Of a stretch of 42,967 nucleotides of DNA, positions 26,627-42,967 are shown piece after piece. The notes under the pieces were generated by a model that worked only from the letters and a program-made list of their open reading frames with translations, did no database searches and had not been told where the DNA came from. Source of the stretch: a virus (lineage: Duplodnaviria; Heunggongvirae; Uroviricota; Caudoviricetes). How positions within the stretch are numbered: position 1 is the first letter of the stretch; each line of letters starts with the position of its first letter. The position numbers and the translations under genes were made by a program. The stretch is taken from positions 1 to 42,967 of IMG/VR virus record IMGVR_UViG_2563366803_000007. One strand, written 5' to 3'.

Positions 26627-26702
26627 TGGTGCTGGTTAACGGACTTGAACCGCTACCCATTCGCTTACAAGGCGACTGCTCTACCATTGGAGCTAAACCA
26701 GC
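26627..26702 (-). tRNA. tRNA-Thr (anticodon UGU), phage-encoded
   Basis: Manual cloverleaf: 7-bp acceptor stem GCTGGTT/AACCAGC, D stem GCTC/GAGC, anticodon loop CTTGTAA, T loop TTCAAGT, 3' ACCA encoded. Confidence 0.6.
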
Positions 26703-26707
26703 ATATT

Positions 26708-26782
26708 TGGCGGGACAGCGTGGACTCGAACCACGATAAGAAGGTTAACAGCCTTCCGTAATGACCTTTATACGACTGACCC
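26708..26782 (-). tRNA. tRNA-Asn-like (anticodon GUU), possibly degenerate
   Basis: Manual cloverleaf: anticodon stem GAAGG/CCTTC, loop CTGTTAA, T arm CGTGG-TTCGAGT-CCACG, CCA encoded; one mismatch each in acceptor and D stems. Confidence 0.45.
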
Positions 26783-33110: not shown

Positions 33111-33827
<717 letters not shown>

Positions 33828-33939
33828 TCGGCAAGGTGTTCTGGTCGGCGCATAGCTGATAACAATTGAGCAAGAATCTTCATCGAATTAGGGGAATTTT
33901 CACTCCCCTCAGAACATAACATAGTAAATGGATTGAATT

Positions 33940-34779
33940 ATGAAGAATGGTTTTTATGCGACTTACCGCAGCAAAAATAAAGGGAAAGATAAGCGCTCAA
34001 TAAACCTGTCTGTTTTCCTTAATTCTCTGCTGGCTGATAATCATCACCTGCAGGTTGGCTCCAATTATTTGTATATTCATAAAATCGATGGAAAAACTTT
34101 TCTCTTTACCAAAACAAATGACAAGAGTCTGGTTCAGAAGATAAATCGCTCTAAAGCTTCAGTTGAAGATATTAAGAACAGCCTCGCAGATGACGAATCA
34201 TTGGGATTCCCATCTTTTTTGTTTGTTGAAGGCGACACCATTGGTTTTGCCAGAACTGTTTTCGGGCCGACCACATCCGATCTGACAGATTTTTTAATCG
34301 GGAAAGGAATGTCATTAAGCAGTGGAGAGCGCGTTCAGATAGAGCCACTGATGAGGGGAACCACCAAAGACGATGTTATGCATATGCATTTCATCGGCCG
34401 AACAACGGTGAAGGTAGAAGCCAAGCTACCTGTATTTGGCGATATATTAAAGGTCTTAGGGGCAACAGATATTGAAGGGGAGCTTTTTGACTCATTGGAT
34501 ATAGTCATTAAGCCAAAATTTAAAAGGGATATAAAAAAGGTTGCCAAGGATATTATTTTTAACCCGTCACCTCAATTTTCAGACATTAGCCTGCGGGCAA
34601 AAGATGAGGCCGGAGATATTTTAACAGAACATTATCTATCAGAAAAAGGCCATCTCTCAGCGCCTCTGAACAAGGTCACCAATGCTGAGATAGCTGAAGA
34701 GATGGCATATTGCTACGCAAGAATGAAAAGTGATATACTGGAATGTTTTAAAAGGCAGGTGGGCAAAGTTAAGGATTAA
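33940..34779 (+). CDS. rexA: RexA exclusion protein (279 aa)
   Basis: Length and position immediately downstream of cI as in lambda. Confidence 0.85.
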   Translation: MKNGFYATYRSKNKGKDKRSINLSVFLNSLLADNHHLQVGSNYLYIHKIDGKTFLFTKTNDKSLVQKINRSKASVEDIKNSLADDESLGFPSFLFVEGDTIGFARTVFGPTTSDLTDFLIGKGMSLSSGERVQIEPLMRGTTKDDVMHMHFIGRTTVKVEAKLPVFGDILKVLGATDIEGELFDSLDIVIKPKFKRDIKKVAKDIIFNPSPQFSDISLRAKDEAGDILTEHYLSEKGHLSAPLNKVTNAEIAEEMAYCYARMKSDILECFKRQVGKVKD

Positions 34780-34794
34780 TTATCAGGAGTAATT

Positions 34795-35229
34795 ATGCGG
34801 AACAGAATCATGCCTGGTGTTTACATAGTAATAATTCCTTACGTTATCGTAAGCATTTGCTATCTCCTTTTCCGCCACTACATTCCTGGTGTTTCTTTTT
34901 CAGCTCATAGAGATGGTCTTGGGGCGACATTGTCATCATATGCAGGAACCATGATTGCAATCCTGATTGCTGCCTTGACGTTTCTAATCGGAAGCAGAAC
35001 GCGCCGACTGGCCAAGATTAGAGAGTATGGGTATATGACATCGGTAGTTATTGTCTATGCCCTTAGTTTTGTTGAGCTTGGAGCTTTGTTTTTCTGCGGG
35101 TTATTGCTTCTTTCCAGCATAAGCGGCTACATGATACCCACTATCGCCATCGGCATTGCCTCTGCATCGTTCATTCATATATGCATCCTTGTTTTCCAAC
35201 TATATAATTTGACCAGAGAACAAGAATAA
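34795..35229 (+). CDS. rexB: RexB membrane protein (144 aa)
   Basis: Multi-pass hydrophobic protein, length and position as lambda RexB. Confidence 0.85.
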   Translation: MRNRIMPGVYIVIIPYVIVSICYLLFRHYIPGVSFSAHRDGLGATLSSYAGTMIAILIAALTFLIGSRTRRLAKIREYGYMTSVVIVYALSFVELGALFFCGLLLLSSISGYMIPTIAIGIASASFIHICILVFQLYNLTREQE

Positions 35230-35402: not shown

Positions 35403-35465
35403 AACCATCTGCGGTGATAAATTATCTCTGGCGGTGTTGACATAAATACCACTGGCGGTGATACT
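35403..35465 (+). promoter_or_regulatory. Left operator OL3-OL2-OL1 with PL promoter (-35 TTGACA, -10 GATACT)
   Basis: Three 17-bp lambda operator sequences: AACCATCTGCGGTGATA, TATCTCTGGCGGTGTTG, TACCACTGGCGGTGATA. Confidence 0.9.
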
Positions 35466-36456: not shown

Positions 36457-36485
36457 GCCCTCCAGTGCGTGAGGGCGATTTTTTT
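36457..36485 (+). terminator. Rho-independent terminator (tL1-like): GCCCTC-CAGTGCGT-GAGGGC followed by a T-run
   Basis: Hairpin and seven T residues read from sequence, ending 4 nt before the downstream RBS. Confidence 0.55.
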
Positions 36486-36497
36486 GATGGAGGATAT

Positions 36498-37466
36498 ATG
36501 AGTGAAGTAACAGATTTAGTTGTTATTGAAAAAGCAAATGCAATGACTGTATTTCAGTCTGCCGACCAGATTGAAGAAATCCTTCAAAAGGTTGAACGTG
36601 AAGTTATGTCCTTTGTGCCTGATATCACAACGGCAAAGGGCAGAAAGGAGATCGCTTCTCTGGCGTATAAAGTTGCGCAGACGAAAACATATCTCGATGG
36701 TCTTGGCAAAGACCTTGTTGCTGAACTGAAGGAAATTCCAAAGCTAATTGATGCCAACCGCAAGACAGTGCGTGATCGCCTTGATGAGCTGAAAGCCAAG
36801 GCACGCCAGCCTCTTACTGATTATGAGGAAGAACGGGCGCGGATTAAAGCCGAAGAAGAAGCTAAGGCAGCAGCTGAAGCTCTCGCAAAGCAAATTGAGT
36901 CTGACCATGAAATAGCGATTTTGATGGATCGCGAATTTGACCGCCAAAGAGAAGAGGCAAGACTCAAAGCGGAGCAGGAAAAGCGAGAGCATGAAGAACG
37001 CTTAAAAAAAGAAGCTGAAGAGAAAGCCAGAGCTGAAGCCGAAGCAAAGGCAAAAGCCGAAATTGAAGCAGCAGCAAGGCGAGAAGCAGAAGCTAAGGCC
37101 GCAGCGGAACGTGCAGAGCGTGAACGCATTGAAGCCGAGCAACGAGCACAGCGCGAAGCAAAAGAGGCAGCAGAACGAGCTGAAAGAGAAAAGCAGGCGG
37201 CAATTGAAGCAGAACGCCGAAAAGCACAGGAGGAGGCTGAACGAATCCGGCGCGAGGCTGAAGCAAAAGAGCAAGCCAGAATAGCAGAAGAAAAAAGAAT
37301 CAAGGACGAAGAAGAGCGTAGAGCAAAGGATAAAGCTCACCGGAAAGAAGTAAATAACAAAATACTTGCTGACCTTATCAAGGTTGGCGCATCAGAAGAT
37401 GTTGCTAAAAATATCATAACAGCCATCGTAAAAGGCGAAGTATTCGCAACAAAAATAACCTACTAA
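36498..37466 (+). CDS. Hypothetical protein (322 aa) with structured N-terminal domain and about 200-aa Ala/Glu/Lys/Arg-rich coiled-coil (TolA-like) region
   Basis: GGAGGA RBS then ATG at 36498; long EAKAKAEAEA-type repeat tract; track ORF starts at an upstream GTG. Confidence 0.5.
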   Translation: MSEVTDLVVIEKANAMTVFQSADQIEEILQKVEREVMSFVPDITTAKGRKEIASLAYKVAQTKTYLDGLGKDLVAELKEIPKLIDANRKTVRDRLDELKAKARQPLTDYEEERARIKAEEEAKAAAEALAKQIESDHEIAILMDREFDRQREEARLKAEQEKREHEERLKKEAEEKARAEAEAKAKAEIEAAARREAEAKAAAERAERERIEAEQRAQREAKEAAERAEREKQAAIEAERRKAQEEAERIRREAEAKEQARIAEEKRIKDEEERRAKDKAHRKEVNNKILADLIKVGASEDVAKNIITAIVKGEVFATKITY

Positions 37467-37622: not shown

Positions 37623-37759
37623 CCATCAATCACCAGATGCTTCGTGCGGCACAAAACAAAGCAGTAATAGCCCGATTTATTGGTGATTCGAAAATGTGGC
37701 TTGAAGCAAATAAAGCGATGAAATCAGCTATCAACCTTCCGTGGTATCGCAGGAAATGA
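37607..37759 (+). CDS. kil: Kil-like host division inhibitor (50 aa)
   Basis: Overlaps the cIII 3' end as in lambda; FIGD-KM block recalled from lambda Kil. Confidence 0.5.
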   Translation: MRNEIAINHQMLRAAQNKAVIARFIGDSKMWLEANKAMKSAINLPWYRRK

Positions 37760-37914
37760 GTTTTACAGATAACTGGTCAGACGAAGAATTCATTCGTCAG
37801 ATGAAAGAATTAATCGGTAACGAAGGAGATATTCATGTCACTTGCAACCACAGTGAAGGAGAGCAAGTTACAGAGACGCATGTACACGCAGAAAGCTCTC
37901 TGGTATCGCCATAA
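37756..37914 (+). CDS. Small hypothetical protein (52 aa), possibly Arf-like
   Basis: ATGA-coupled to kil; position upstream of erf. Confidence 0.3.
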   Translation: MSFTDNWSDEEFIRQMKELIGNEGDIHVTCNHSEGEQVTETHVHAESSLVSP

Positions 37915-38015
37915 TGGCGACCGCGAAGGAATGCGGGTATGCCTTAATTTGTCCCGAGTCGAAGTATTAAATCAGCGTTATTTCCTTGGGTCGTGTCCAT
38001 TCTGAGAACAATCAT

Positions 38016-38621
38016 ATGAGCAAAGAATTTTACGCAAGACTGGCAGCTATTCAGGAGAATCTGAACGCGCCAAAGAATCAGTACAACTCATTCGGTAAAT
38101 ATAAATACAGAAGCTGCGAAGATATTCTTGAAGGCGTTAAGCCGTTACTGAATGGTCTGTTTTTATCAATCAGCGATGAAGTTGTGTTGATTGGTGATCG
38201 GTATTACGTGAAAGCCACGGCAACTATTACCGATGGCGAAAACAGCCATACAGCAACCGCTCTTGCACGAGAGGAAGAAAGCAAGAAAGGAATGGATTCT
38301 GCACAAGTTACGGGAGCTACAAGCTCTTATGCACGCAAGTATTGCCTCAATGGTTTGTTCGGCATTGATGATGCGAAAGATGCAGATACAGACGAGCATA
38401 AACATCAGCAGAACGCAGCAGCAAAGCAATCAAAACCATCACCTACACCTGAACAGGTTCTAAAAGCATTCACTGACGCAGCAATGCAGAAAAACACCGT
38501 AGAAGAGCTTAAACAGGCGTTCGCCAAAGCGTGGAAGATGCTCGAAGGCACACCTGAGCAGCACAAAGCGCAGGACGTTTACAACATCAGACGAGACGAA
38601 TTAGAAGGAGCTGCTGCTTAA
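38016..38621 (+). CDS. erf: Erf single-strand annealing recombinase (201 aa from internal ATG)
   Basis: MSKEFYARLAAIQENLNAPKNQYNSFGKYKYRSCEDILEGVKP matches P22 Erf N-terminus from memory. Confidence 0.85.
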   Translation: MSKEFYARLAAIQENLNAPKNQYNSFGKYKYRSCEDILEGVKPLLNGLFLSISDEVVLIGDRYYVKATATITDGENSHTATALAREEESKKGMDSAQVTGATSSYARKYCLNGLFGIDDAKDADTDEHKHQQNAAAKQSKPSPTPEQVLKAFTDAAMQKNTVEELKQAFAKAWKMLEGTPEQHKAQDVYNIRRDELEGAAA

Positions 38622-39004
38622 TGGCACATTCGATTACTGTAAGACTAAACAAGCCCGCAAGAGAGTTTCAGGCCGGGGAAAATATCGGATTCAACATCCG
38701 TGCTGGCGTTCAGTATTACGATCGCCAGACAAAAAAGAAAGAATGGACAAACTACAGCGCCGTTGTATTTGCCAAGCCGGGAGCGCAAGCGGATTACTAC
38801 CGTAGTGTTCTTGTTGAAGGTGGCATTGTTGAAATTACCGGAGAAAACATCAGGGTTGATGTTTATCAGGGGCAAAATGGTCAATCAATCACTCTTGAAT
38901 TACTGAATGCAAAGATTGGATTTGCAACTTCAGGAAACAGCCAACAGCAGCAAAGTAGCAATCATCAAAATCATCCTGAATACGACGATTCAATTCCCTT
39001 CTAG
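38621..39004 (+). CDS. Short SSB-like single-stranded DNA-binding protein (127 aa)
   Basis: C-terminal acidic tail DDSIPF (SSB tail is DDDIPF) after a Gln-rich linker; coupled to erf. Confidence 0.55.
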   Translation: MAHSITVRLNKPAREFQAGENIGFNIRAGVQYYDRQTKKKEWTNYSAVVFAKPGAQADYYRSVLVEGGIVEITGENIRVDVYQGQNGQSITLELLNAKIGFATSGNSQQQQSSNHQNHPEYDDSIPF

Positions 39005-39027
39005 ATTAGCAAAATAAGGATTCCATT

Positions 39028-39321
39028 ATGCCAGCGCCTCTGTATGGTGCGGATGACCCGCGCCGCTGTTCCGGCAATTCCGTATCGGAGGTGCTGGATA
39101 AATTCAGAAAAAACTACGATCGAATAATGTCTCTACCGCAGGAAACGAAAGAGGAAAAGGAATTTCGCCACTGCATATGGCTTGCAGAGAAAGAAGAGCG
39201 CGAGCGAATTTACCAGACATCAATCCGACCATTCCGCAAAGCCACATATACCCACTTCCCTGAAATTGACCCGCGCCTGCGTCATTACCGCTCACGCTAT
39301 GGCGCTATCAGTAATGACTGA
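39028..39321 (+). CDS. Hypothetical protein (97 aa), tentatively Abc2-like anti-RecBCD
   Basis: Size and position after erf as in P22; identity not verifiable here. Confidence 0.4.
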   Translation: MPAPLYGADDPRRCSGNSVSEVLDKFRKNYDRIMSLPQETKEEKEFRHCIWLAEKEERERIYQTSIRPFRKATYTHFPEIDPRLRHYRSRYGAISND

Positions 39322-39331
39322 GGAATTAACA

Positions 39332-39622
39332 ATGAAAACAATGAAGCTAAACATCGACCTCGGCAAATACGTTATTACCGGAACCAAACACGATCTGATT
39401 CTTAGCGAAAGAGGAATTATCAAAGAAGGCGAGAATGCAGGGAAAGAAACACTAAGTCGTATCGGTTATTACAGCAAGTTTGAGCATCTGGTTAAAGAGT
39501 TATGCAACCGTGAAATCCTGTTATCTCAGGCGCAGACACTACAGGATATTCAGCAGCATATCGAAACTTTAGGTATGTCACTTAGCATGGCTATTGACCA
39601 GTTCATGGAGAGTAAATCATGA
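39332..39622 (+). CDS. Hypothetical protein (96 aa)
   Basis: GAGGA RBS before ATG at 39332; early-left accessory region. Confidence 0.4.
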
Positions 39623-39783
39623 GAGGACTTGCATACAATCCCGGCATTCTTCCGGCAGAAATGATTATTCGCCAACGCGTAAAGCCAATGCCATCGAGAG
39701 AGGAATTGCTTAAAAGAAATAGTTTCGGTTCTGTTAATGACAACAAATATCTGAATGCGATGTGGCGGAGTGGGAAGAAATGA
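39619..39783 (+). CDS. Small hypothetical protein (54 aa)
   Basis: ATG overlaps upstream stop (ATGA); coupled to the next gene. Confidence 0.3.
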
Positions 39784-40376
39784 AACAAATGACACTAATT
39801 GAGATGGATGGATTTCTGAAAGGTAAATGCATACCACGAGATTTAAAGGTTAACGAAACAAACGCTGAATATCTGGTGCGTAAATTTGCTGAAGCGGAGG
39901 CCAAGATTTCGGCTCTGTCCGAAGACCACCAGAAAGCGATTGAGTCAATTAAGCAGGCTGATGCGGCTGTTAAGTTGGCACACGAGAAGTTTTCGGCGCT
40001 GGCGGCGGAGAATGCGAGGCTTAAGGCCTTCAAAACCGCCGTTTATCAGCAGATGGGCGTCGGATGTGATGCTCCTGAATTCTCCATTACGGTAGGTTTG
40101 AGTAACTTACGTCGTTTTGCTGACACACTCCACGTCATTGAGCGTGAGTTCTTTACCAAAGAGCTACCTGATGAAGAGCACGAAGGCGAAACATTCAATG
40201 AATGTCCACTTAGCTGGGGAATGAGCGTCGAACAGTACGTTTCCGAGTTTCGCAAATGCCTGGCTGAAGTACGTGCGCAGGGCGTGGAGATGTTTGCTGA
40301 GTGTGCATACACACTTGAACATCATGATCACGCAGTAGCCTTCGCCGCTGAGCTTCGCAAAGGAGGCAACCAGTGA
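39780..40376 (+). CDS. Hypothetical protein (198 aa from ATG at 39780)
   Basis: GGAG RBS; ATGA overlap with the preceding small ORF. Confidence 0.4.
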
Positions 40377-40924
40377 GCAAGATTGACTATCAGGCACTGC
40401 GTGAAAAGGCAGAGAAAGCAACGTGTGGCGAGTGGTCGCTCGAATATGGAGAGGGCCGATTTGATGGTGATGATGCACTAATTCATCGCGAGGCTGCTGG
40501 ATATATTCCCATTTGCAGAATTGAAGGAGCGCATCCTGAAAGCGGTTTCGATGAAGATTTCCAAATAGAACAGCAGGCCAATGCTGAATTCATCGCCGCA
40601 GCCAATCCAGCTACCGTCTTGGCGCTGCTGGATGAGCTGGAAAGAAACCAGCAATACATCAAACGCCGCGACCAGGAGAACGAGGATATTGCGTTAACGG
40701 TAGGGAAGTTGCGCGTTGAGCTTGAGGCAGAAAAACAGCGGGCAAAGGATCTGTTTATGGAAAATGCCCGGCTTAAGTCAGGCATAGCCGGTCTGATACA
40801 CCTCGGTATTCGATATGCAGATGTTGAGGTCATGAAAATTGCTGGAGATGCCCAGCTTTCTACCCCATGCACTGACAGCATCATAAACAGCATTGCAACA
40901 GGCATTCGCATCAAAGGAGAGTGA
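40373..40924 (+). CDS. Ead/Ea22-like protein (183 aa)
   Basis: N-terminus [21 protein letters not shown] typical of Ead/Ea22-like prophage proteins. Confidence 0.55.
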   Translation: MSKIDYQALREKAEKATCGEWSLEYGEGRFDGDDALIHREAAGYIPICRIEGAHPESGFDEDFQIEQQANAEFIAAANPATVLALLDELERNQQYIKRRDQENEDIALTVGKLRVELEAEKQRAKDLFMENARLKSGIAGLIHLGIRYADVEVMKIAGDAQLSTPCTDSIINSIATGIRIKGE

Positions 40925-40925
40925 G

Positions 40926-41171
40926 ATGAACGCTATAACCAAAGAACGTATCAAATTATTCATTAAAAATCCGCTTGATAACGGACTTACTCGTGGCGAA
41001 CAAATGGAACTGGCACGAATTGCACTGGCATCACTGGAACGCGAACAGATTCGCCACGAGCATGCCAAATGGTCTGACTCCACATTTGGCTGCGTTGGCC
41101 CCATTGGTCCACTGAAACACCTCTCAAAAGAGGCACTGGAAGCCGCAGCCGAACCTGACGATCTCAGCTAG
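40926..41171 (+). CDS. Hypothetical protein (81 aa)
   Basis: AAGGAGAG RBS; start just after upstream stop. Confidence 0.4.
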   Translation: MNAITKERIKLFIKNPLDNGLTRGEQMELARIALASLEREQIRHEHAKWSDSTFGCVGPIGPLKHLSKEALEAAAEPDDLS

Positions 41172-41272
41172 TGTGCTGATATGCAGTTCCTGTTGTGGGA
41201 TGCCAGCGCTGTGCTGATTGCCAAGAAGAGTTTGAAGAACGTGGTAAGCACCTAAGGTGATGTATGTGGGTA

Positions 41273-41398
41273 ATGATGAAGCTTAAACGTACTGGGCAGG
41301 AGATGTATTTCCAGTGTTACGACAGCAGGGAAAAGGCTGAAATGGCGATTAAGGTTATGAATTCCGTCGCCAGTAGCTGGGAATTCTATATCAGTTAA
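41273..41398 (+). CDS. Small hypothetical protein (41 aa)
   Basis: Short ORF MMKLKRTGQEMYFQCYDSREK upstream of xis; below the 60-aa track cutoff. Confidence 0.25.
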   Translation: MMKLKRTGQEMYFQCYDSREKAEMAIKVMNSVASSWEFYIS

Positions 41399-41419
41399 AG
41401 AGTGCGGCAGAGGTGATGC

Positions 41420-41665
41420 ATGCAGACAATAATCCAGATCGAGCCAAACGAATGGGTTTCAGAGGACTTGCTGATGGCAGTCACAGGGATGAAACGTGGA
41501 ACCATTACACGGGCCCGCAAATCATCCTGGCTGCTTGGGCGTGAGTATAAGCACGTTTCCCCTGAAGGTGACCCAAAGCCAACCAGCGAATGCATGTACA
41601 ACCGCAAAGCGGTAGACGCATGGATTCAGGCGCAAAAGCAACCATTGGGTGATCGGGCGGTATGA
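41420..41665 (+). CDS. xis: Excisionase-like protein (81 aa)
   Basis: Small DNA-binding-like protein immediately upstream of int. Confidence 0.55.
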   Translation: MQTIIQIEPNEWVSEDLLMAVTGMKRGTITRARKSSWLLGREYKHVSPEGDPKPTSECMYNRKAVDAWIQAQKQPLGDRAV

Positions 41666-41707
41666 AACAGGTAAACTTGCAACGCTCCTGGACGTCGGGA
41701 GGGATAA

Positions 41708-42967
41708 ATGAGTAAAGAATCATACCCAACGGGCGTTGAGAACCACGGAAAGTCACTCCGCATATGGTTCATTTTTAAAGGTAAGCGTGTCAGGGAAAAC
41801 CTCGGTGTCCCTGACACCGCTAAAAACAGGAAGGTGGCCGGGGAGCTGAGAACGTCAGTTTGTTTCGCTATCCGCATGGGGACCTTTGACTATGCGGCCC
41901 AATTCCCCAACTCGCCAAATCTGAAAACTTTCGGCATCGGGAAGAAAGATATCACCGTAAAAGATCTGTCTGAAAAATGGCTTGAGCTTAAACGGATGGA
42001 GATCTGCGCTAATGCCATAAACAGGTATGAATCGGTGGTGAGAAGCATGCTGCCGAGGGTTGGCGCGAATAAGCTGGTTTCGTCTGTGACAAGAGAAGAG
42101 CTTCTCTATATCAGGAAGGATATGCTGGCGGGGGATAAAGGGTTGAGTGTGGTGACGGTAAACTACTACATGACCACGATCGCGGGTATGTTTCAGTTCG
42201 CTGTTGATAATGGCTATGTGAGTGAAAACCCGTTTAACGGCATCAAGCCGCTAAAGAGGGCCAGGATAGAACCAGATCCGCTCACACGTGATGAATTCGT
42301 TCGCTTCATAGATGCCTGCAAGCATCAGCAAACGAAAAACCTGTGGTCAATTGCGGTATACACAGGATTACGTCACGGTGAGTTGGTATCCCTCGCATGG
42401 GAAGACATAGATCTGAAAACTGGAACGATGACCATACGCCGGAATTATACGAAACTCGGTGATTTCACTCTACCAAAAACCGAAGCCGGTACCGACAGGG
42501 TCGTTCACCTGATCAAGCCAGCCATTGACGCTTTGAGGAACCAGGCGGAAATGACCAGGTTAGGCAGGCAGTATCAGGTTGAGGTACAACTGCGGGAGTA
42601 TGGCCGAACGGTCATTCACGACTGTACATTTGTGTTCAATCCTCAGTTGGTTAAAAAAAGTGGCAGCGTAGGTTACCTGTACAAAGCCGATTCAGTTGGT
42701 GACTCATGGGATGCGGCGCTTAAACGGTCAGGTTTAAGGCACCGCAAGGCGTATCAGTCGAGACACACTTACGCCTGCTGGTCGCTGTCTGCCGGGGCCA
42801 ATCCGAGTTTCATTGCCAGCCAGATGGGACACTCCAGCGCCCAGATGGTTTTCAATGTTTACGGCGCCTGGATGGCCGACAGCAGCAGCGATCAGATTGC
42901 TATGTTGAACCAGAAATTATCGGACTTTGCCCCATCCATGCCCCACGGCATGGCGATAGGAATATGA
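41708..42967 (+). CDS. int: Tyrosine integrase (Rac IntR-like family, 419 aa)
   Basis: C-terminal catalytic region with YTGLRHGE, HTYACWSLSAGANPSFIASQMGHSSAQMVFNVY blocks; strong resemblance to Rac IntR from memory. Confidence 0.9.
   Translation: MSKESYPTGVENHGKSLRIWFIFKGKRVRENLGVPDTAKNRKVAGELRTSVCFAIRMGTFDYAAQFPNSPNLKTFGIGKKDITVKDLSEKWLELKRMEICANAINRYESVVRSMLPRVGANKLVSSVTREELLYIRKDMLAGDKGLSVVTVNYYMTTIAGMFQFAVDNGYVSENPFNGIKPLKRARIEPDPLTRDEFVRFIDACKHQQTKNLWSIAVYTGLRHGELVSLAWEDIDLKTGTMTIRRNYTKLGDFTLPKTEAGTDRVVHLIKPAIDALRNQAEMTRLGRQYQVEVQLREYGRTVIHDCTFVFNPQLVKKSGSVGYLYKADSVGDSWDAALKRSGLRHRKAYQSRHTYACWSLSAGANPSFIASQMGHSSAQMVFNVYGAWMADSSSDQIAMLNQKLSDFAPSMPHGMAIGI

Follow-up and report, generated by a model that had tools for sequence, protein, structure and literature searches.

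Gene content and probable origin of a putative accessory region in the early-left operon of a lambdoid Escherichia coli prophage

Between abc2, the last gene of the recombination module, and the excisionase gene xis of a lambdoid prophage lies a block of small genes (positions 39332-41398), which we have analyzed within the whole 42,967-nucleotide (nt) stretch of DNA that carries it, hereafter the window (IMG/VR record IMGVR_UViG_2563366803_000007). We conclude, with a probability of about 0.7, that this block is the accessory tail, equivalent to an ea or exo-xis region, of the early-left operon of an Escherichia coli prophage with lambda immunity and a recombination (Rec) module of the HK97/HK446 type. 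That figure refers to the overall description, namely the identity of the block, its anatomy and its origin; it does not extend to the functions of the open reading frames (ORFs) ORF3 and ORF4, in which our confidence is lower. Five of the small genes in the block are intact and two others survive as broken remnants; its sequence is most readily interpreted as a probable accessory hotspot for host-modulating and anti-defense genes.

The block is on the strand transcribed from PL, downstream of N, CIII and Kil, and it is bounded by the recombination module (Erf, SSB-like gp31 and Abc2) upstream and by xis downstream. This placement, which an earlier note on this DNA had correctly recognized together with the lambdoid, Ea-type character of the region, therefore makes the block the positional equivalent of the lambda exo-xis region and of the P22 ea region. 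Its gene content is mosaic: 39 distinct arrangements were found among 80 related IMG/VR loci. These loci were chosen by their similarity to ORF2, so that the conservation of this gene is partly built into the sample; independent controls are provided by abc2, erf and gp31. Over erf, gp31, abc2, ORF2 and codons 1-36 of the gene that follows, the median identity of the loci to the window is 97-99%. No phage record and no complete E. coli genome record covers at least 80% of the region.

In phage HK446, the genes after abc2 (gp29-gp28-gp27) have the same order as in the window, and the syntenic products are highly similar (gp33 89%, Erf 99%, gp31 99%, Abc2 97%, gp29 98% and gp28 100% identity). 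In the gp27 slot, ORF3 has a near-identical N-terminal module (residues 1-36) and the same anchors, and it is joined to the next gene by the same linker, but the body of ORF3 (approximately residues 37-190) is unrelated to that of Oad2, the gp27 product; moreover, HK446 has after oad2 a stub of an ead-type gene and then xis. This stub (L007 4300-4345) retains the first ~13 codons of the ead-type gene and results from a deletion at the same conserved linker. Lambda's exo-xis region occupies the same position in the PL operon, from the recombination genes to xis (PMC10834534; PMC7093339; PMC8614690), but the window has no homologues of orf60a, orf61, orf63, orf73 and ea8.5. The ea region of P22 reads abc2-orf56-eaE-orf45-eaF-eaD-eaI-eaA-eaG-eaC-xis, and the window follows a P22-like order of gene types (abc2, ORF2 as orf56, an EaE-slot gene, an EaD-type and an EaA-type gene). 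However, P22 has no DUF5405 gene, its EaD shares just a 40-amino-acid (aa) coiled-coil stretch with ORF4, and ORF5 corresponds to only the N-terminal quarter of the EaA-type protein. Phage accessory regions adjoining abc2 have been screened by Silas et al.; they contain fast-evolving genes, some of which are counter-defenses or triggers of abortive infection (bioRxiv 10.1101/2023.04.06.535777; PMC12373910). The window conforms to the same concept, with accessory genes beside the counter-defense gene abc2; none of its peptides was found in the supplementary files of PMC12373910.

Anatomy of the block and its two gene remnants

The features of the block are as follows.

39332-39622, + strand: ORF1, 96 aa, DUF5405 (homologue of HK446 gp29 and Sf6 gene 24)
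39619-39783, + strand: ORF2, 54 aa, DUF2737 (homologue of HK446 gp28, HK97 gp38 and P22 orf56)
39780-40376, + strand: ORF3, 198 aa, mosaic protein of EaE/Oad2 type
39875-40350, + strand: variable body of ORF3, delimited by DNA alignment with HK446
40029-40289, + strand: ORF3 core domain (residues 84-170), uncharacterized
40373-40924, + strand: ORF4, 183 aa, GTG start, Ead/Ea22-like
40926-41171, + strand: ORF5 open frame, 81 aa, DUF550/EaA-type 5' remnant
40926-41203, + strand: ORF5 5' remnant of a DUF550/EaA-type dATP/dGTP pyrophosphohydrolase gene, whose in-frame homology runs past the stop codon to the joint
41197-41203: recombination joint GGGATGC, a 7-nt microhomology common to the DUF550 and TraR/DksA genes
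41198-41260, + strand: 3' remnant of a TraR/DksA C4 zinc-finger gene, last 20 codons and stop (GCQRCADCQEEFEERGKHLR*), in a frame different from that of ORF5
41264-41398, + strand: ORF6, 44 aa (41 aa if started at ATG 41273)

All six of the ORFs that the earlier note had listed are thus present on the + strand, and they are not the product of chance because five have family matches and all six have conserved phage or prophage homologues. The claim that only the Ead/Ea22-like gene is recognizable did not survive: four of the six exceed the curated cut-offs of Pfam families (DUF5405, DUF2737, Ead_Ea22 and, in part, dATP-dGTP_PPHyd), ORF3 is an EaE/Oad2-type mosaic and ORF6 belongs both to a PHROG and to a family of small proteins. 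Nor are there six genes in the full sense; five are intact, ORF5 is a truncated remnant, and a second remnant had been overlooked in the supposedly empty segment 41172-41263. As to the "several" ATGA overlaps, there are two of them (ORF1/ORF2 at 39619-39622 and ORF2/ORF3 at 39780-39783), the other coupled junctions being a GTGA overlap between ORF3 and ORF4 (40373-40376) and a TGAgATG with a 1-nt spacer between ORF4 and ORF5 (40922-40928). A Shine-Dalgarno-like purine run lies 5-9 nt upstream of every start; the strongest (AAAGGAGG before ORF4 and AAAGGAG before ORF5) are within the last codons of the preceding gene. ORF1-ORF5 would be translated as a coupled chain, because of these overlapping stop and start codons and of the Shine-Dalgarno sequences embedded in the ends of the upstream genes.

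ORF1 matches the DUF5405 Pfam model (25.7 bits, gathering score 21.6) and is 98% identical to HK446 gp29. Its fold, a beta-meander with two helices, matches those of DUF5405 proteins in BFVD (TM-scores of 0.75-0.86). The gene is an optional insert of ~290 nt between abc2 and ORF2, present in 10 of the 80 related loci. Its PHROG, phrog_154 (E=1.5e-32), is labelled "replication initiation protein", a label that is also attached to one of the BFVD matches. That ORF1 has such a role is nonetheless scarcely credible, given a 96-aa protein of this fold without a match to solved replication proteins, a phage that encodes its own O/P-type replication genes elsewhere, and the absence of the gene from 70 of the 80 related loci. 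We have rejected the label, which appears to be a propagated annotation.

ORF2 has an almost complete match to PF10930 (DUF2737; E=4.2e-30, 103.8 bits, gathering score 25, profile positions 1-52 of 53), and its identity is 100% to HK446 gp28 and 74% to P22 orf56. In 65 of 70 related loci it begins 14 nt downstream of abc2; ORF2 is a backbone gene tied to abc2. We found no functional study of either DUF5405 or DUF2737 in the literature.

The case of ORF5 is different. There is no complete DUF550 domain in its product, which aligns with only positions 1-38 of the 97 in the PF04447 profile. Intact relatives of ~209 aa, which read ...DDLSEWADMQFLLWDAQRR..., are found in E. coli T28R and Ecol_276, and compared with these the window has a GAG to TAG change at 41169-41171 as well as a TGG to TGT change. 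The DUF550 homology is then lost after LLWDA, at ~41203, and the exact 81-aa form occurs on just 3 contigs. The nonsense codon, the deletion and this restricted distribution therefore identify ORF5 as a recent pseudogene and not a short conserved gene. In T28R (L003:3809-4438), a single continuous DUF550/DUF551 frame is annotated in RefSeq as two features, a "partial" pseudogene and, in the same frame, a shorter coding sequence; Ecol_276 (L004:3804-4472) has the same kind of split at the level of the annotation, the frames having been compared in T28R alone.

A four-way DNA alignment places the joint GGGATGC inside an imperfect patch of ~20 nt (41197-41216). To its left the window matches the DUF550 relatives and to its right it matches a TraR/DksA-xis-int module, so that the apparent gap 41172-41263 contains further DUF550 sequence followed by the TraR/DksA remnant. 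E. coli WCHEC035148 and Klebsiella phage GZ7 carry the TraR/DksA gene in its intact, 72-aa form; 41198-41260 no longer encodes a four-cysteine zinc finger in a frame with its start codon, the second CxxC pair alone having been retained. The block would thus have originated by recombination at conserved gene-boundary linkers, of which one, at the end of ORF4, is identical to that of lambda, and by a single microhomology-mediated deletion.

To the right of the joint, the segment with ORF6, xis and int is shared at 99.6% identity with prophages that occupy this site in ~50 E. coli genomes, and at 96% identity with phage GZ7. ORF6 matches phrog_37627 (E=1e-8) and has an AAGGTGA sequence 5 nt upstream of its ATG. 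The 15 homologue clusters of its family, from E. coli and Klebsiella, are 77-95% identical, nearly all exactly 44 aa long, and differ by conservative substitutions; of the 7 DNA differences from GZ7, 5 are at third codon positions. The gene is annotated in GZ7 and omitted by PGAP in E. coli. In other Klebsiella phages with the same xis and int, the homology begins just past the ORF6 stop codon, and ORF6 is therefore an optional small gene of the xis-int module; it is a conserved gene that travels with this module in Klebsiella and E. coli.

Such debris raises the question of whether the block is largely functionless baggage of a decaying prophage, held in place by linkage and by frequent recombination, not by selection. 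The truncation of ORF5 by a nonsense codon and a deletion, the reduction of the TraR/DksA gene to 20 codons, the lack of any phage or complete E. coli genome record with at least 80% of the region and the dispensability of ORF1 in most relatives all favor this explanation. Against it, ORF1-4 and ORF6 are intact and have good ribosome-binding sites, ORF1, ORF2 and ORF6 show 77-100% conservation, their substitutions being conservative, and these same genes also occur in viable phages such as HK446, HK97 and Sf6. We consider the baggage explanation quite improbable.

ORF3 and the slot downstream of the DUF2737 gene

ORF3 directly follows the DUF2737 gene, in the slot that is held in HK446 by gp27 (Oad2). 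A recent preprint reports that Oad2 binds to the P2 OLD nuclease and prevents it from being activated, that Gp33, encoded in the same operon, triggers OLD, and that a 54%-identical Oad2 homologue from HK75 fails to inhibit OLD (10.64898/2026.07.10.737580, July 2026). Its authors regard Oad2 as related to P22 EaE and as sometimes fused to EaD/Ea22, and they already describe a modular hotspot at this locus, made up of anti-immunity genes that evolve fast (10.64898/2026.07.10.737580). The suggestion in the earlier note that such regions house anti-defense genes is to this extent borne out, in that one slot of the block is that of the anti-defense gene oad2.

ORF3, which has no Pfam match, consists of the N-terminal module (residues 1-36), a coiled coil that ends in LAAENARLK, a core of ~80-85 aa, a short variable cassette and an LRKGGNQ tail. 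Its overall identity to Oad2 is 35%; there is no whole-length similarity to the Oad2/EaE family, the resemblance being confined to the nearly identical residues 1-36 and to short anchors (LAAENAxxK, LAEVRAQ and the LRKGGNQ tail). The DNA tells the same story: identity to HK446 is near 100% up to ~39874 and again from ~40351 through the start of ORF4. The exact ORF3 protein is found on 5 contigs in 3 different downstream contexts. On one of these (L091, 6598-7320), it is followed by ~720 nt without a called gene, possibly another decayed Ead-type gene.

The flanks of the slot are nearly invariant among the related loci, whereas what lies between them is not. In 74 loci the slot encodes 65 distinct protein sequences of 122-264 aa, with a median pairwise identity of 47% and 29 clusters at 70% identity. 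Oad2 itself was found solely in HK446 among these loci, the next best protein being 62% identical. The idea that the cassettes are wholly unrelated was rejected, since the bodies chain into one mosaic cluster at a threshold of at least 40% identity.

The ORF3 core has a distribution of its own. Nearly invariant among close relatives, it was found in none of the 80 related viral loci and in just 3 of 50,697 phage records, and in E. coli it follows other N termini in prophage proteins, some of which are encoded on hundreds of contigs. Its family (244 clusters at 50% identity that match at E<=1e-3, with proteins of 96-845 aa) corresponds to no Pfam family and has no PDB relative. A scan of 59 relatives showed a fusion to a Lar restriction-alleviation domain in one of them and to DUF551 in two.

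As a modular relative of Oad2 encoded close to Abc2 and Gp33, manipulators of RecBCD that can trigger immune sensors, ORF3 offers the most specific lead to a function in the block. The protein combines a conserved N-terminal module and a probably oligomerizing coiled coil with a swappable body. The likeliest role of this body would be to bind and neutralize a host or prophage immune protein, a tentative suggestion to which we give somewhat less than even odds; by analogy, the target would be an immune sensor that is activated when the phage's Abc2 and Gp33 disturb RecBCD. Inhibition of P2 OLD in particular is unlikely, because the 54%-identical homologue of Oad2 is already inactive. A broader conjecture is that the slot after the DUF2737 gene might be a specificity-switching anti-immunity locus, in which a constant N-terminal module, coiled coil and linker frame interchangeable bodies that each neutralize a different sensor guarding RecBCD or recombination; the ~80-aa domain of ORF3 would then be a new and widespread counter-defense module with a target other than P2 OLD. 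We think it unlikely that this conjecture is right. If ORF3 and its alleles are immune inhibitors, the slot would be a catalogue of counter-defense specificities in E. coli prophages, with which the corresponding defense systems of the host could be sought. Otherwise the gain is one of annotation: one pseudogene, one gene remnant, one small gene omitted by PGAP and one unsupported, propagated label.

Several observations weigh against the interpretation of the block as a hotspot of host-modulating and anti-defense genes. The diversity of the slot could reflect a neutral mosaic shuffling instead of an arms race, and the parts that ORF3 shares with Oad2 at 35% identity may be recombination anchors rather than functional determinants. 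A BLASTP comparison of ORF3 with P22 EaE revealed no similarity at E<=1e-3. The AlphaFold2 (AF2) model of ORF3 is poor (predicted local distance difference test score, pLDDT, of 59); it is all-helical, with a long helix at 28-92 that is consistent with the coiled coil, and a binding surface cannot be argued from such a predicted structure. The underlying alignment had almost no diversity in the core, and the model was too poor for a fold search. ORF1 gave no informative fold match, ORF2 has no sequence relative in the PDB, and searches of PDB sequences with ORF1, ORF2, ORF3, ORF4 and the profiles A2 and A7 returned nothing below E=0.2.

ORF4 and the Ea22-type proteins

ORF4 has a strong match to PF13935 (E=4.6e-36, 124.9 bits, gathering score 27) and consists of an Ead N-terminal domain, an Ea22-type coiled coil, a C-terminal domain of a different kind and a GIRIKGE tail. 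It is 44% identical to lambda Ea22 over residues 1-123. The two proteins align through the N-terminal domain and halfway into the coiled coil, and in this part of the coiled coil they have the stretch ERNQQYIKRRDQENEDIALTVGKLRVELE in identical form. The end of the gene, with the same GIRIKGE tail, is likewise identical in DNA sequence to the end of lambda ea22. Between these parts, however, the alignment stops at residue 123, and ORF4 has a C-terminal domain unlike the one solved for Ea22; it has no match among PDB sequences, although the latter domain is represented there (PMC10834534). The DNA of the Ea22 coiled coil is highly conserved, and opposite it lies an antisense ORF (40483-40914, - strand) that matches phrog_13760 (E=3e-25); this PHROG was probably built from mis-called antisense ORFs.

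The Ea22 proteins of lambda and of the Stx phages favor lysogeny (PMC7093339; PMC10834534). By analogy, the likeliest role of ORF4 would be to bias infection toward lysogeny, a possibility that we rate a little short of an even chance.

This analogy can be taken further. ORF3 and ORF4 would then both be modulators of the lysis-lysogeny decision of the Ea22 type, tetrameric coiled-coil proteins that engage a host factor and favor lysogeny with no involvement in immune evasion. ORF4 does share its N-terminal domain and coiled coil with lambda Ea22, whose deletion favors lytic growth in lambda and Stx phages (PMC7093339), and ORF3 has the same three-part architecture, with many relatives of its core bearing Ead-type N termini. 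Nevertheless, the sole characterized protein of the ORF3 slot is an immune inhibitor, the C-terminal domains of both ORF3 and ORF4 are unrelated to that of lambda Ea22, and a conserved host factor accounts less easily than changing targets do for the extreme allelic diversity of the ORF3 slot. We therefore regard a common Ea22-type role for the two proteins as unlikely, and retain the accessory hotspot as the preferred interpretation of the block.

Surroundings of the block in the prophage

The window represents a lambdoid prophage in its entirety. Over its final 9188 nt the identity to E. coli assembly GCA_000408585.1 is 100%, and in that assembly the integrase is followed by yecE, yecN, cmoA and cmoB. 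Features outside the block are listed here.

33114-35229, + strand: lambda-type immunity region with cI, RexA and RexB
35437-35465, same strand as the block: PL-like promoter, TTGACA-17-GATACT
37756-37914, + strand: Gp33 homologue, 52 aa, 89% identical to HK446 Gp33
37986-38621: Erf
38621-39004: SSB-like gp31
39028-39321, + strand: abc2 (anti-RecBCD), last gene of the recombination module, PF11043 E=9.1e-64, 94% identical to P22 Abc2
41420-41665, + strand: excisionase gene xis, PF06806 E=2.8e-34

N, CIII and Kil are encoded upstream of the block and on its strand, the SSB-like gp31 corresponds to HK97 gp40, a predicted SSB (PMC12315714), and int is, like xis, downstream of the block. By what is known of lambda, N-antiterminated read-through from PL would bring transcription to the block once N, CIII, Kil, Gp33, Erf, the SSB-like gp31 and Abc2 have been passed. 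No sigma-70-like promoter was predicted within 39332-41398, and the sole terminator-like match on the + strand of the block (40131-40146) has a weak 5-bp stem of a kind seen in shuffled sequence too. Rfam identified no RNA family within the block, and a search of 38900-41750 for repeats gave just short ones at chance level. A PADLOC scan of all the products gave no match; its library is without anti-defense proteins, and the result is hence uninformative on an anti-defense role.

The immunity region encodes both RexA (PF15969, E=1e-97) and RexB (PF15968, E=8.5e-92), and the prophage therefore carries the RexAB abortive-infection system. Between N and CIII, there is a Glu/Ala/Lys-rich protein of 333 aa (36465-37466, + strand) to which no Pfam family corresponds; RefSeq gives a near relative the label "TolA", which is probably an artefact of low complexity. 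Upstream of erf, the Gp33-like ORF (37756-37914) overlaps by 80 nt, in a different frame, with a 56-aa ORF (37835-38005, + strand) that PGAP and some phage records annotate in its place. In the late/nin part of the prophage, two tRNA genes adjoin each other on the - strand (26630-26702 and 26711-26782).

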